A stretch of 59,639 nt of DNA, from positions 1-59,639 of the forward strand of contig JACPLI010000021.1 of the NCBI GenBank assembly GCA_016186635.1, given 5' to 3'. How positions within the stretch are numbered: the stretch's first letter is position 1; each line of letters opens with the position of its first letter. Shown in pieces: positions 30,783-36,041 of this stretch. The notes beneath the pieces were generated by a model. That model saw only the letters and a list, made by a program, of their open reading frames with translations. It had not been told where the DNA came from and did not search any database. Position numbers and translations under genes: made by a program. Source of the DNA: Candidatus Liptonbacteria bacterium. Lineage in GTDB: Bacteria; Patescibacteriota; Minisyncoccia; UBA6257; 2-01-FULL-56-20.

Positions 30783-31559
30783 ATGGATACATTACAGTTG
30801 CATGGAGCGATAGTGGTAAAAACCGTTTCCGAGGAGGCGAAACGGGGTGTGTTCGAGATTGAGGGCTTGTTTGCGGGGTACGGTGTCACGGTGGGGAATG
30901 CGCTCCGGCGTACGCTTCTTTCGTCCTTGCAGGGCGCGGCGATCACCGAGTTCAAGGTGAAAAACGCGCCGCACGAGTTCTCCACACTGCCGGGCATGAA
31001 GGAAGACCTTGTGGAACTCCTTTTGAATTTCAAGCGGCTCCGTTTCCGCATGCACACCGACGAGCCGCACGTGCTTGCGCTCAAAGCGAAAGGGGAGAAA
31101 ATCGTAACCGCAGCGGATGTCCAAGCGGATGCGGAGGTGGAGCTTATGAACCCAGAAGAAATCATCGCGCACCTTACCGCAAAGAACGCGGAACTCGACA
31201 TTGAGCTCAAGGTGGAGCGGGGGCTGGGGTACTCTTCGGTTGAATCGCGCAAGGCACAGGGGCGGCTTCCCATCGGCACCATTGCGGTGGACGCGATTTT
31301 TACGCCGGCGCTGCGCGTGAATTACACGGTGGACAACATGCGGGTGGGGGAGCGTACGGACTACAACCGGCTTCGGCTTGAGATTGACACCGACGGCTCC
31401 ATCAGCCCTTCGCATGCGCTTGCCCAGTCCGTGCAGATTATGAAGGACCATTTCGAAAAAGTGTTGGGGCTGGCCGCAGTGCAGGCGTTCGAAGCGCCGG
31501 CGGCGGAGGCACCGAAGGAAAAACCCGCGAAGAAGAAGAAGTCGAAGAAAGAAGAGTAA
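30783..31559 (+). CDS. rpoA: RNA polymerase alpha subunit, N-terminal domain only (258 aa)
   Basis: GYGVTVGNALRRTLLSS.. alpha-NTD. Ends in a Lys-rich tail (PKEKPAKKKKSKKEE) with no recognisable alpha-CTD. Confidence 0.9.
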   Translation: MDTLQLHGAIVVKTVSEEAKRGVFEIEGLFAGYGVTVGNALRRTLLSSLQGAAITEFKVKNAPHEFSTLPGMKEDLVELLLNFKRLRFRMHTDEPHVLALKAKGEKIVTAADVQADAEVELMNPEEIIAHLTAKNAELDIELKVERGLGYSSVESRKAQGRLPIGTIAVDAIFTPALRVNYTVDNMRVGERTDYNRLRLEIDTDGSISPSHALAQSVQIMKDHFEKVLGLAAVQAFEAPAAEAPKEKPAKKKKSKKEE

Positions 31560-32115: not shown

Positions 32116-32457
32116 ATGGATTACCACATTGACGCGAAAAACCAGCGGTTGGGGCGCATGGCGTCCCGCATCGCGACGCTCCTCCAGGGGAAAGAGAGTC
32201 CTTCATACGCGCGGAATCAAGTGTCTGCGGTGAAGGTCATTGTAAAAAACGTGAAGGAGCTTGACCTTACGCCAAAGAAGCTCGAGCAAAAAATCTATTA
32301 CCGCCACACGGGCTATATGGGGCATTTGAAGGAGCTTACGCTTGAACAGATGTGGGCGAAAGACCCGAAGCGCGTGGTGCGCGAAGCGGTCAGGAAAATG
32401 CTCCCGAGGAATTTTCTCACGTCGCGGCGGTTAAAGAATCTTATTTTTGTGGACTAA
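32116..32457 (+). CDS. rplM: ribosomal protein L13 (short)
   Basis: GRMASRIATLLQGK...YYRHTGYMGHLKE. Confidence 0.9.
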   Translation: MDYHIDAKNQRLGRMASRIATLLQGKESPSYARNQVSAVKVIVKNVKELDLTPKKLEQKIYYRHTGYMGHLKELTLEQMWAKDPKRVVREAVRKMLPRNFLTSRRLKNLIFVD

Positions 32458-32461
32458 TATC

Positions 32462-32902
32462 ATGGCAGAAACCAAGACAAAGAAAATAATTGCGAAGGCC
32501 GAGCCGGTGAAAATAGCCCATTATGTGGAAGCGGTAGGGCGGCGGAAAACCGCGGTGGCGCGCGTGCGTCTCACGAAGGGGAAGGGCGAGGTGACGGTAA
32601 ACGGGCGGGCGCTCGAGGCATATTTCCCGCTCCCGCGATGGCGCTCGTTCCTGCTTGCGCCGCTTGAGCGCTTGAAAATGCGTGATGCGGTGAATGTGAG
32701 TGCCAAAGTGCAGGGAGGGGGTCCTTCGGGGCAGGCGGAGGCGGTGCGGCACGGCATCGCCCGCGCGATTGTGCTCCAATCCCCGGAGATGAAAGTTCAG
32801 CTCCGCGCGTTCGGATTCCTCACCCGCGACCCGAGGATGGTGGAGCGGAAGAAGTACGGCCTGAAGAAGGCGAGAAGGGCTCCCCAGTGGGCCAAGCGTT
32901 AG
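32462..32902 (+). CDS. rpsI: ribosomal protein S9
   Basis: GRRKTAVARVRL..GGGPSGQAEAVRHGIARA..RDPRMVERKKYGLKKARRAPQWAKR. Confidence 0.95.
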   Translation: MAETKTKKIIAKAEPVKIAHYVEAVGRRKTAVARVRLTKGKGEVTVNGRALEAYFPLPRWRSFLLAPLERLKMRDAVNVSAKVQGGGPSGQAEAVRHGIARAIVLQSPEMKVQLRAFGFLTRDPRMVERKKYGLKKARRAPQWAKR

Positions 32903-32907
32903 AGAGG

Positions 32908-32940
32908 AAGTTCCCACCATACGGCGGGAACTTTTATTTT
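32908..32940 (+). terminator. intrinsic terminator after rpsI
   Basis: aagttccc ... gggaactt stem followed by ttatttttg. Confidence 0.65.
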
Positions 32941-32960
32941 TGCCCGTTGAGGAGGGGATA

Positions 32961-33068
32961 GGGGTCGGGGAAGGGCGGGAAATGAGTCCTTCCCCGTGTA
33001 GGAATGAGCGGAGCGGACTCAAAACCGAGGGTTTTGAGGGAGTCCCGCCCCCGGCGCAATGGCGGGAC
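32961..33068. repeat. three-hairpin element, copy Y
   Basis: Colinear with 15115-15198. Stem 1 differs by paired changes (ggggaaGG..CCttcccc versus ggggaaCC..GGttcccc). Confidence 0.6.
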
Positions 33069-33141
33069 GACGCCTCAGTGGCCAAGAGATAGTGAGAGTT
33101 TCCCATGCGCGATGGGAATTCTTTGCGCATACGTTATCACA

Positions 33142-33167
33142 GTTTACTTTAGTGTACTAAAGTAAAC
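33142..33167. promoter_or_regulatory. 26-bp palindrome gtttactttagt-gt-actaaagtaaac (candidate TrpR-like operator, copy 1)
   Basis: Perfect 12-bp arms. Copies at 35672-35697 and 36009-36034. Confidence 0.55.
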
Positions 33168-33274
33168 CCCGCAACTATGTCCTTGCAGGCATAGCGTTGA
33201 GGTGCTGCTCTTTACGGTTTCGGTAAGTTACCTCCTGCCTTCACAAGCGGGATTTCCGCGTGAACGGGGTACAC

Positions 33275-33316
33275 CAAAAAGGAGCCCCGACGGGATGATT
33301 CCCGCCGGGGCTTTTG
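33275..33316. terminator. bidirectional intrinsic terminator
   Basis: 12-bp stem agccccgacggg/cccgccggggct (one mismatch), flanked by aaaaagg on the left and ttttga on the right. Confidence 0.65.
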
Positions 33317-33351
33317 ATATCGTATTTTAGAGGGTTGGAATGAGTGCTTTA

Positions 33352-34743
33352 TCAGTCGACGTATGCGACATTCGGATGTATCAGCTCAATGGCATCGCGG
33401 AAGCGGATATCCTCAATGAATTTCAAGAATTTCTCTGGTTCCTTGAAATCCTTCACAAAGTTCGCGGCGACCTCCTTGCTGGTGCGGAGCGTGGAGAAGG
33501 AAACCGTGGCTGCCTTTTTCTCTAACGTTCCGCAGGGTTCCGCGCCGAAGACGGACGCATAACTCTCAAGCACGGCTGACCGTTGTTTGAGCCATGAGAG
33601 GGCGTGCCATCGTGCGTTCGGAAACTTCTCTGCGTTCACCGCGCGCACCGCATTCATGGTTGCTCCGGAGCAGATAACATCGTCAACGACGATGACGTTT
33701 GCGATGTCCGGGCATATCGCCGCGTCAATTTTTTCCACTTCCGCTCTTGGTGCGCTTCCCGGCGTCCAGTGGCGCTTCGCGTGGAGGTATATTCGCCGCC
33801 CGAGCCAATTTCCGTAGAACTCCTTATAGAGATTATCTTCCACCCGTGGAGTTCCGAGCAGTCGCCCTTTCCCATCTGCACAGAAGAGAAACTGGTCTAT
33901 GAGGCGGGCTCCCGCGCCGGGGAAGATAATCAATGAGGTGGATGAGTTGAACCTTGTCCATCCTCTCCAGTGCAGGAGGTGGAGCGTGAGCGATGTCGCA
34001 TCTGCCACGCGCAACCCCCAGTCCTCCGTTATGCATCGAAATTCCTCCACGTCAAAGCTACGAGCACTTTCATCAAGGAGAATCACCCTTTCTTTTTCCT
34101 TTGCCGCGTCGCCGCCTGCTTCAATTTTCTGGAGTATTTGCGAGAAGTTTGGCTGCCCTTTCACCTTTATCGTCCGCCACCCCATCTGCGCGGGAACCGC
34201 GACGTCGTCCTCGCTGTCGCCGACCATGAGGAAAGAGCGTGCCGGCACGCCGGGAAAAAGATCCATGACGTTTTTCCATGCGTGCGGTTGGGGTTTGATG
34301 ATGTGTGTCTCGCAGGAGAGCAGGGCATGGTGGAAGAAGGGAGATATTTTGAGTTTTTTGTCCACCCATCCCATCCATGTAGTGTTGGTGAGAAGCACAA
34401 GGAAGTATTCCTTCTCGCGCAGTTCGCGGAGCGCTGCCTGTGCCCCCCGAAACCACATCGCGCTTTTATTGTCTTCGCGCCATAACCGTTTCGCTTCCTC
34501 AATCTCATTGCTGTACTTTGCAGGGTTTTCTGTAAAGTCCTTGAAGAAATGGTCAAACATCTTTTTCACCATTTCGTCGTAGGTAACGTTTTCGCCTGTC
34601 ATGCAACGTCGTCGAACCCACGGATAAATTTCCTCGCGTTTCACGCCGAGCCGCACCAGTACCGACTCATACCCGCCTGTGTTCTTTGTAGTTCTGATGA
34701 GCGTGTTCCACAAATCAAAACAGATTACTTTCACTTCGTTCAT
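33352..34743 (-). CDS. HAD-hydrolase / phosphoribosyltransferase fusion protein
   Basis: N-terminal VICFDLWNTL, LTNTTW and MVGDSEDD HAD motifs. C-terminal VIVVDDVICSGATMNA PRPP-binding motif. Confidence 0.6.
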   Translation of the reverse strand: MNEVKVICFDLWNTLIRTTKNTGGYESVLVRLGVKREEIYPWVRRRCMTGENVTYDEMVKKMFDHFFKDFTENPAKYSNEIEEAKRLWREDNKSAMWFRGAQAALRELREKEYFLVLLTNTTWMGWVDKKLKISPFFHHALLSCETHIIKPQPHAWKNVMDLFPGVPARSFLMVGDSEDDVAVPAQMGWRTIKVKGQPNFSQILQKIEAGGDAAKEKERVILLDESARSFDVEEFRCITEDWGLRVADATSLTLHLLHWRGWTRFNSSTSLIIFPGAGARLIDQFLFCADGKGRLLGTPRVEDNLYKEFYGNWLGRRIYLHAKRHWTPGSAPRAEVEKIDAAICPDIANVIVVDDVICSGATMNAVRAVNAEKFPNARWHALSWLKQRSAVLESYASVFGAEPCGTLEKKAATVSFSTLRTSKEVAANFVKDFKEPEKFLKFIEDIRFRDAIELIHPNVAYVD

Positions 34744-34792
34744 AACTATTCGCCGCCTTTCGTTGTTGAGTTGTTAATTCTGCTGTTCTTTC

Positions 34793-34826
34793 CGGAAAAA
34801 GAAAAAATCCCTTCCAGAAAGGGATT
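34793..34826 (-). terminator. intrinsic terminator after the nucleoside phosphorylase gene
   Basis: Minus-strand aatccctt-tctgg-aagggatt followed by ttttttcttttt. Confidence 0.6.
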
Positions 34827-34857
34827 GAGGTATGCGTCGAATACAGCCAATCCCTTT

Positions 34858-35658
34858 CTATAAGGGGCTGGCGTGATGGCTCTGTTTTGCCAAGAGCGCA
34901 ATCGCGCGAAGCGCTACGGCAATCATGTCCTCAACCACGCGGGCGCTCACTTTTGGGTCTGACTCTGTGGTGACGCGTTGTTGCATGCCCCGCACGCGAG
35001 CGCGGAGCGGCTCGGGGTTCGCGTTCACCGCGAGAATCGCCCCCGCGCGTGCGCCCCAGAGGGACGCAACTATGAAGAGCGCGGCGGATTCCATCTCGGA
35101 GGAGAGGATTGGCGTCTCTTGCGTGTTCCATCTCTGGTCGCGGAGATATGCACCCCACTTCACTATTGAGGATTGGTTCCCGTAAAACGCGTCGTGCGTG
35201 CGGTTAATCCCAATAGCGTATTTCTTTTTCGATTCCTTCGCTGCTCCTTCGAGCGCATTAACGACAGCAAAGTCCGCTACGGCGGGGAAGCCCTCGGGGA
35301 TGTATTCCCGTGTGGTACCCTCGTCCCGGATTGAGGCGATGGGAATCACCAAGCTCCCCGCGGGAACATCCGCGCGCCATGCGCCGCCGCATGTTCCTAC
35401 ACGGATAAGGACTTTTGCGCCTGCGGCAATGAGTTCTTCCGCGGCAATGGCGGTTGAGGGGCACCCGATGCCCGTGGAGCACACCGTAACCGGTATTCCT
35501 CGGTACAATCCGTTGCCGGTCTTAAACTCCCGGTTGTTTCCTATGATGCGGAAGCTGGTGAGTGCGCGGCCAATCGTATCCACGCGCGCAGGGTCGCCTG
35601 GCAAAAGCACGTACGGTGCCACAAGAGAGGATTTTATTTTGAGGTGTGAGAGAAGCAT
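34858..35658 (-). CDS. PNP/UDP-family nucleoside phosphorylase
   Basis: LLPGDPARVD, CSTGIGCPSTAIAAEELI, RVGTCGG, SEMESAALF. Confidence 0.8.
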   Translation of the reverse strand: MLLSHLKIKSSLVAPYVLLPGDPARVDTIGRALTSFRIIGNNREFKTGNGLYRGIPVTVCSTGIGCPSTAIAAEELIAAGAKVLIRVGTCGGAWRADVPAGSLVIPIASIRDEGTTREYIPEGFPAVADFAVVNALEGAAKESKKKYAIGINRTHDAFYGNQSSIVKWGAYLRDQRWNTQETPILSSEMESAALFIVASLWGARAGAILAVNANPEPLRARVRGMQQRVTTESDPKVSARVVEDMIAVALRAIALLAKQSHHASPL

Positions 35659-35671
35659 GGCGGTAGTTATA

Positions 35672-35697
35672 GTTTACTTTAGTTAACTAAAGTAAAT
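35672..35697. promoter_or_regulatory. 26-bp palindrome gtttactttagt-ta-actaaagtaaat (operator copy 2) inside a putative promoter
   Basis: 14 nt upstream of the phosphorylase ATG. Minus-strand TTGCCA-N15-TAAAGT overlaps it. The core TAGTTAACTA matches the E. coli trp operator core. Confidence 0.55.
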
Positions 35698-35717
35698 GGC
35701 AAAAAAATAAATGGGTA

Positions 35718-36005
35718 CTATGAAGATTCTTTGAGTCTTGCGAGTATAGTGCGGTAGCCGCCTTCTTTGCCACGGAGCCACTTCGCCACGCGGGCGACGG
35801 TGGTGGAACTCAATCCGGTGGCTTTTTGCACGGTTGTGTAGGACTTTCCCGCAGCAAGCATCTCCGCGGCAGCAAGGCGATTGGCGAATTCCTCAATCTC
35901 GGATTTCGTGAGCAAATCGCGCAGAAAACGCGCCGCTTCATCCTCGGTTTTGAGCGCCAACATCGCCTGCAGGAGCCGCTGTTTTTCTGGTTTATTCCAA
36001 TCCAT
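35718..36005 (-). CDS. TrpR-related YerC/YecD-family DNA-binding protein
   Basis: FLRDLLTKSEIEEFANRLAAAEML..GKSYTTVQKATGLSSTTVARVAKWL. Confidence 0.75.
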   Translation of the reverse strand: MDWNKPEKQRLLQAMLALKTEDEAARFLRDLLTKSEIEEFANRLAAAEMLAAGKSYTTVQKATGLSSTTVARVAKWLRGKEGGYRTILARLKESS

Positions 36006-36008
36006 AGC

Positions 36009-36041
36009 GTTTACTTTAGTTTACTAAAGTACACTTGTCAA
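36009..36041 (-). promoter_or_regulatory. operator copy 3 overlapping a TTGACA-N17-TAAAGT promoter; likely leaderless
   Basis: Palindrome gtttactttagt-tt-actaaagtacac (36009-36034). -35 at 36036-36041 and -10 at 36013-36018 on the minus strand. ATG at 36003-36005. Confidence 0.55.

Follow-up and report, generated by a model that had tools for sequence, protein, structure and literature searches.

The window analyzed here, a 59,639-nucleotide (nt) stretch corresponding to contig C17 of a Candidatus Liptonbacteria genome (G000; 0.92 Mb, 97.9% complete, 55% G+C), contains a gene for a 95-amino-acid (aa) regulator of the TrpR family, followed by genes for a PNP/UDP-family nucleoside phosphorylase and for a fusion of a HAD phosphatase with a phosphoribosyltransferase (PRT). 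These genes are accompanied by three copies of a 26-bp palindrome, GTTTACTTTAGT-NN-ACTAAAGTAAAC (Table 1). A preliminary description of the window had reported the three copies and proposed that they are operators of the adjacent protein; the copies are confirmed at their positions, and with up to three mismatches allowed the rest of the window contains no further match. No match appears in 100 dinucleotide-preserving shuffles, the chance expectation being none, and the sites are thus real and specific. The whole genome holds exactly six copies with two or fewer mismatches, and the next-best match has seven, so the palindromes are a small discrete set and not a high-copy generic repeat. All six share the inner 18 bp, ACTTTA-N6-TAAAGT.

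Table 1. Features of the regulator locus and the palindrome copies elsewhere in the genome.
Feature	Coordinates	Strand	Basis or context
Candidate operator copy 1, 0 mismatches	33142..33167	.	185 nt past the stop codon of the phosphorylase/HAD-PRT operon
Terminator-like hairpin, bidirectional, ending the phosphorylase/HAD-PRT operon	33275..33316	.	sequence and fold
HAD phosphatase and divergent type-I PRT fusion, 463 aa	33352..34743	minus	PF00702, PF13419, weak PF00156
PNP/UDP-family nucleoside phosphorylase, closest to uridine phosphorylases	34858..35658	minus	PF01048
Candidate operator copy 2, 1 mismatch	35672..35697	.	inside the 59-nt spacer from the regulator stop codon to the phosphorylase ATG
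HisR/YerC-type TrpR-family regulator, 95 aa (P0001)	35718..36005	minus	PF01371, TIGR02531
Candidate operator copy 3 (HisR-type box), 1 mismatch	36009..36034	.	overlaps the spacer and -10 of the regulator's own promoter
Predicted sigma-70-type promoter, TTGACA (36041-36036)-N17-TAAAGT (36018-36013)-7 nt-ATG (36005)	36013..36041	minus	sequence; layout recurs in relatives
Palindrome copies outside the window	C27:26821, C27:27614, C7:20005		whole-genome scan

The regulator matches PF01371 with 64 bits and the YerC/YecD model TIGR02531 with 65.4 bits (cut-off 42.2), but reaches only 24.6 bits with the TrpR equivalog model TIGR01321, under its cut-off of 67.25. Its closest structures in the PDB (3KOR, 3FRW and 3G1C) are HisR-type, and it is the sole strong copy of the family in G000. 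Aligned to 3G1C, the DNA-contact positions of the recognition helix (Tyr and the equivalents of Ala80, Thr81 and Arg84) keep Tyr, Thr and Arg, and the helix has Ala to Thr and Ser to Ala changes (GASTATISRV vs GLSSTTVARV); the presumed effector helix reads FLRD where Firmicutes HisR proteins have FFED, an arginine taking the place of a conserved acidic residue.

YerC has been identified as HisR, a TrpR-family histidine repressor (Ashniev et al. 2022, BMC Genomics, PMC9413887), and the earlier remark that YerC/YecD relatives have no established function is therefore outdated. The published HisR box is a 20-bp palindrome with the consensus cacTTTA-N6-TAAAgtg (cacTTTAnnnnnnTAAAgtg), a candidate site precedes the regulator's own gene in about half of the genomes analyzed in that study, and Ruminococcus gnavus HisR bound one such site in a fluorescence-polarization assay, with binding improved by 0.75 mM L-histidine (PMC9413887). 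HisR paralogues re-targeted to tyramine or hut genes are also described, and Patescibacteria are not among the phyla covered (PMC9413887). This consensus equals the ACTTTA-N6-TAAAGT core of the sites described here, and by this comparison the palindromes are HisR boxes rather than relatives of the trp operator, to which they had been likened. Copy 2 does contain TAGTTAACTA, as does the centre of the E. coli operator, but the likeness to the trp operator TGTACTnGTnnACnAGTACA is limited to the central TnGTnnACnA, which is unconserved in relatives, and the outer positions differ (GTACT versus ACTTTA here). E. coli TrpR, with its trp, aroH and trpR operators, nevertheless resembles the present system in being a PF01371 protein, a dimeric helix-turn-helix autoregulated repressor whose operators overlap core promoters and, when extended, accept tandem dimers; a further difference is that no trp genes are present among the boxed or neighboring genes examined.

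Copy 3 lies across the spacer and the -10 hexamer of a promoter from which transcription would start at or beside the ATG of the regulator gene. The same TTGACx-N17-TAAAGT-N6/7-ATG layout is present in genomes G014, G060, G001, G047 and G003, and because it is conserved the proposal in the preliminary description that the regulator mRNA is leaderless and autoregulated is well supported, with the same architecture recurring in orthologues of many genera. Leaderless starts seem to be a real habit of G000, because the signature TTGnnn-N16-18-TAnnnT-N5-8-start is found at 45 of 776 long open reading frames (ORFs) versus 2 of 776 internal control positions, in what is a crude test. A Shine-Dalgarno-like motif precedes the first start in only 105 of these 776 ORFs, and leaderless mRNAs are apparently common in this genome.

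The link between box and regulator gene extends well beyond this genome. A family-level set of 61 genomes yielded 14 with a strong regulator orthologue, and at all 12 of the orthologue loci examined a cTTTA-N6-TAAAg palindrome adjoins the regulator gene directly upstream. The closest six genera have TTGACA-N17-TAAAGT-N6/7-ATG, with the operator's downstream half-site acting as the -10, whereas in more distant genera the upstream half-site supplies a TATACT -10 instead. A wider scan using one genome per species identified at least 577 related loci, the best 80 of which were kept; essentially all of these are labelled as, or group with, Patescibacteria metagenome-assembled genomes, some records bearing other automatic labels. 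The box is in the regulator's own promoter in 76 of these best 80 loci, with a modal centre 15-16 nt before the ATG, and many have another box, 18 bp upstream of the first and centred on the TTGAC -35 element, such that the tandem pair covers both -35 and -10. Within 778 kb of these loci there are 108 exact matches to the core versus 5 for a reversed control pattern; 78 of the 108 fall in the regulator promoter region, and 16 lie before an AstE/AspA-like gene whose promoter has the same leaderless layout (TTGACx-N17-TAAAGT-N6-ATG). A similar site is thus the rule at the yerC-like loci of relatives. Their box consensus is tACTTTAgTtTGcTAAAGT, the recognition helix is almost invariant among the 80 loci, and in the regulator tree the Patescibacterial proteins form one clade apart from Firmicutes HisR (support 100/100). 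Fixation of a box in the core promoter of the regulator's gene, in genomes that are only distantly related, is classically the mark of a repressor that controls its own expression through an operator. A metagenome scan with an exact 24-nt pattern returned five unrelated contigs, none with relatives of the regulator or its candidate targets.

At copy 2 the palindrome overlaps a weaker minus-strand promoter match, TTGCCA-N15-TAAAGT, whose -10 hexamer is 17 nt from the phosphorylase ATG. The position given in the preliminary description is correct except that the palindrome ends 13 nt, not 14, before that ATG. A box before the phosphorylase gene recurs in two other genomes: the congener G014, with the same layout (TTTTTTTGCC...box...17 nt...ATG), and the distant genome L106, where a box stands before a PNP gene beside separate HAD and PRT genes. 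The association of a box with uridine-phosphorylase-like and HAD-phosphoribosyltransferase genes is therefore seen in three genomes. The phosphorylase scores 211 bits with TIGR01718, below the cut-off of 280, and its best PDB matches are the uridine phosphorylases 3QPB and 4LNH. The HAD-PRT fusion has weak matches to pyrimidine 5'-nucleotidase models and is 82% identical in G014 (tblastn), and a structure search with its PRT domain yielded no informative solved relative. Both products presumably act as the enzymes that these assignments suggest.

We consider it likely that the palindromes are operators of the HisR/YerC-type regulator, as had been proposed; this view is supported by the match to the HisR motif and by the linkage of box and regulator across genomes. 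A regulator dimer would read both ACTTTA/TAAAGT half-sites at the TTTA-N6-TAAA spacing, probably together with a small-molecule co-repressor, by analogy with characterized HisR, and its action would be repression rather than activation. At copy 3, where the downstream half-site is itself the -10 hexamer, bound protein would exclude RNA polymerase because the box forms the promoter spacer and -10, resulting in negative autoregulation. The phosphorylase/HAD-PRT operon would be controlled at copy 2 in the same manner, or by a roadblock to transcription that reads through from the regulator promoter. L-histidine is our best guess for the co-repressor, offered tentatively by analogy, and is favored because of the family assignment and the recurrent linkage to HisG or a his operon among close orthologues.

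The genes that accompany the regulator vary among the 80 loci. A co-directional GNAT acetyltransferase with a Cys-rich insert is present at 23 loci and a convergent AstE/AspA-type deacylase at 24, 16 of them with a box of its own; other partners are a 295-aa ligase-like protein (8 loci), an ATP-grasp-like protein with a HAD protein (7), SLOG/LOG proteins (5), and HisG (8 in the flanks, 6 directly downstream). The commonest order, seen in L058, L062, L069, L075, L085, L095 and others, is regulator, GNAT with the Cys-rich (Zn-ribbon-like) insert, and convergent AstE/AspA-type deacylase with its own box, placing an acylation/deacylation pair under a HisR-type box. HisG directly follows the regulator in L076, L093, L102, L063, L100 and L124, alone or with a HisI-like or putative phosphoribosyl pyrophosphate (PRPP) synthetase gene, and the remainder of the his operon lies outside the flank, the arrangement being that of a lone HisG module. 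HisG is followed by hisD...hisH only once (L077, Kaiserbacteria) and elsewhere by a HisI-like gene or one that, judging by sequence alone, resembles a PRPP synthetase gene, and the HisG-linked regulators are scattered through the Patescibacterial clade. The regulator of the window pairs in the tree with a protein heading a SLOG-PRT-HAD operon. The nucleoside-salvage regulon suggested in the preliminary description thus appears to hold for this lineage and a few others, but judging from these neighborhoods the common theme of the family is GNAT/AstE-AspA, HisG or a his operon. G000 itself has no AstE/AspA-like, GNAT or 295-aa ligase-like genes that we could find. G000 also gives no match to the PRPP synthetase N-terminal domain PF13793, although the phosphoribosyltransferase model is passed by at least three of its proteins; one candidate for a divergent PRPP synthetase is a 302-aa open frame on C20.

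The remaining four sites are less readily interpreted. Copy 1 has only weak promoter matches: on the minus strand TTGCGG-N17-TAAAGT, directed antisense into rpsI, and on the plus strand ATCACA-N16-TAAAGT, directed into 115 nt that end at the bidirectional terminator of the operon; rplM-rpsI, on the plus strand, end at 32902. Copy 1 is within approximately 230 nt of DNA that is missing from the congener G014, and its place in the proposed three-copy regulon is accordingly doubtful. All four sites lie where G000 and G014 differ by insertions or deletions (indels). In the comparison of G000 C27:26780-27640 with G014 C4:22200-23800, the C27:26821 site replaces most of a G014 gene of approximately 390 nt, the first approximately 36 nt of which are left in G000, and at C7:20005 the palindrome is between the tmRNA gene and a divergent gene for a 273-aa Ser/Thr/Ala-rich membrane protein, a gap that in G014 holds a HAD phosphatase gene beside the tmRNA gene. 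These sites may be functional operators of recent origin, may act as roadblocks or in looping, or may be copies that have spread by some route; any function for them is putative.

Several other features are present around these sites. A 62-codon remnant of a peptidase S51 gene lies between a NADAR gene and the C27:27614 site, which is followed directly by a 34-nt near-perfect palindrome (CCCCACACCACGGGTGTACACCCATGGCGTGGGG) at C27:27640-27672; the element as a whole, approximately 95 nt, has direct GTAAAC repeats and inverted CCCACACC/GGTGTGGG ends on its flanks and resembles a small insertion. The tmRNA gene, from about C7:20190, has its own TTGACA-N17-TATTAT promoter (region C7:19970-20560). 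A hairpin repeat at 32993-33037 (...GGACTCAAAACCGAGGGTTTTGAGGGAGTCC...) has copies that are 84-96% identical on C20, C19, C27, C5 and C26 and is also kept after rpsI in G014, representing an intergenic repeat family distinct from the operator. The stretch from rpsI to copy 1, which contains this hairpin, has a fold z-score of -2.0, which is not persuasive. A small RNA beside the sites was considered and set aside, as the z-scores of -2.4 for the 149 nt after copy 1 and -1.4 for the 117 nt after C27:27614 are insufficient, and Rfam scans of the window and of 32880-33360 gave only tRNAs and sub-threshold noise, with no RNA family for copy 1 or its flanks. A 229-aa ORF at 32441-33130 (minus strand), whose start is 12 nt away from copy 1, runs antisense to rpsI without matching any family, and we do not regard it as a gene.

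Several observations weigh against reading all six palindromes as operators of a histidine-responsive repressor. The four sites other than copies 2 and 3 are absent from G014 and have no convincing promoter overlap, the 15-nt spacer of the copy 2 promoter is poor, and the six sites are alike over 26 bp when only 16-20 bp is conserved in relatives, a pattern that copying in the recent past, and not selected binding, could have produced. Moreover, no HisG, HisD, HisH, HisI or HisA/F is found in the 97.9%-complete genome, and the defining HisR regulon is therefore absent. With no his pathway, nucleoside enzymes as targets and an arginine in the effector helix, the ligand may be something other than histidine. 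It is conceivable, although rather unlikely in our view, that the same regulator and operator have been neofunctionalized into a dedicated salvage regulator that senses a nucleoside, a base, ribose-phosphate or a PRPP-related compound. The lack of his genes would fit such a change, as would the targets here and in the nearest relatives (phosphorylase, HAD, PRT, SLOG/LOG and NADAR proteins), the charge reversal from FFED to FLRD, and the precedent of HisR paralogues re-targeted to tyramine or hut genes (PMC9413887). However, orthologues with 55-62% identity and an identical FLRD helix stand before HisG or an entire his operon without forming a separate branch, and their scattered distribution argues for one shared histidine-related ligand; furthermore, the commonest partners (GNAT, AstE/AspA and the ligase-like protein) are amino-acid-type enzymes rather than nucleoside enzymes.

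The likeness of the six sites bears also on whether they are structural or mobile repeats, such as repetitive extragenic palindromic (REP) or miniature inverted-repeat transposable element (MITE)-like sequences, cruciforms or terminators, with the TrpR-like gene an incidental neighbor. Near-identity over 26 bp, the fact that four of the six copies are lineage-specific and coincide with indels or gene losses when G000 is compared with G014, and the richness of G000 in other palindromic repeat families are all in keeping with this. Nonetheless, there are only six copies, their flanks are non-homologous (unrelated save one 16-nt stretch), and the box is tightly linked to the regulator promoter across genomes, and for these reasons the sites do not have the character of a REP/MITE-like family. 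The fixed core-promoter position in 76 of 80 distant genomes and the experimental binding of the motif in one species likewise do not suit a mobile repeat, and as RNA the palindrome would form a loop-less AT-rich hairpin without a T-run, a poor terminator, so that we find this explanation very improbable. A positive or architectural role for the regulator at operon ends, or 80-210 bp upstream of genes, through activation, looping or a roadblock to read-through or antisense transcription, would account for the way in which sites bracket units (copy 3, regulator, copy 2, operon and copy 1; and on C27 the fourth site, the NADAR gene and the fifth site), and the tandem boxes 18 bp apart in relatives make higher-order binding plausible. 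The bracketing sites are not kept in G014, though, and only 2 of the 80 loci (L045 and L053) have a box in the roughly 100 nt that follow the regulator stop codon. Classical upstream activation is also unlikely because rpoA lacks the C-terminal domain of the alpha subunit (alpha-CTD), and activation of the class I type at the sites located at -80 and -92 was judged unlikely on this ground; quite apart from this question, rpoA (30783-31559) encodes only 258 aa, with RNA_pol_A_bac and RNA_pol_L domains and no alpha-CTD detected. An additional role of this kind therefore seems improbable to us, and repression from promoter-overlapping operators is the interpretation that we prefer.

As a HisR-type system the locus is close to that of B. 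subtilis YerC, sharing a protein of one domain and roughly 100 aa that the YerC/YecD model recognizes, a 20-bp palindrome with a TTTA-N6-TAAA core, a site before its own gene, and hisG or a his operon as targets in some Patescibacterial orthologues. It differs in its candidate targets, which here are the uridine-phosphorylase-like gene, the HAD-PRT fusion and possibly the NADAR gene with no his genes, in the location of the operator within a leaderless promoter with a half-site as the -10, in the extension of the palindrome to 26 bp, and in the arginine in the presumed effector helix; the phylum, Patescibacteria, is also different. HisR2 of Enterococcus and Carnobacterium and the hut-linked HisR of Oscillibacter similarly have sites that have moved outside histidine biosynthesis (PMC9413887), but each of them accompanies a canonical HisR as a second copy, in a genome that has histidine metabolism, whereas here the only strong copy is concerned and the pathway is absent. 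The HisR family, its box and its autoregulation are already published, and the surprise is moderate in that the basic biology was known. New elements are the phylum, the set of genes in the candidate regulon of a genome that lacks histidine genes, the placement of the operator inside a leaderless promoter (in relatives with tandem boxes that span -35 and -10), and the sites at indel junctions that are specific to this lineage.

Transcriptional regulation in the candidate phyla radiation is little known, and the pair described here is compact, a 95-aa protein and a 26-bp site, with a predicted mechanism of operator-in-promoter control on leaderless mRNAs and with retention in at least several hundred Patescibacterial genomes. 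An amino-acid repressor family persists after the loss of its usual pathway and is now positioned before nucleoside-salvage genes, which offers a clue to the host-derived signals that these symbionts sense. A broader scenario, speculative and on balance unlikely in its entirety, is that histidine-auxotrophic, host-dependent Patescibacteria have kept a HisR-type repressor as a sensor of external histidine, or switched its ligand, and have rewired it to salvage and scavenging enzymes (nucleoside phosphorylase, HAD-PRT, NADAR, GNAT/AstE-type deacylases and lone HisG), with the operator spreading along with gene-loss and indel events. If this is true, spread of an operator with gene loss would allow a regulon to be rebuilt quickly in a shrinking genome.

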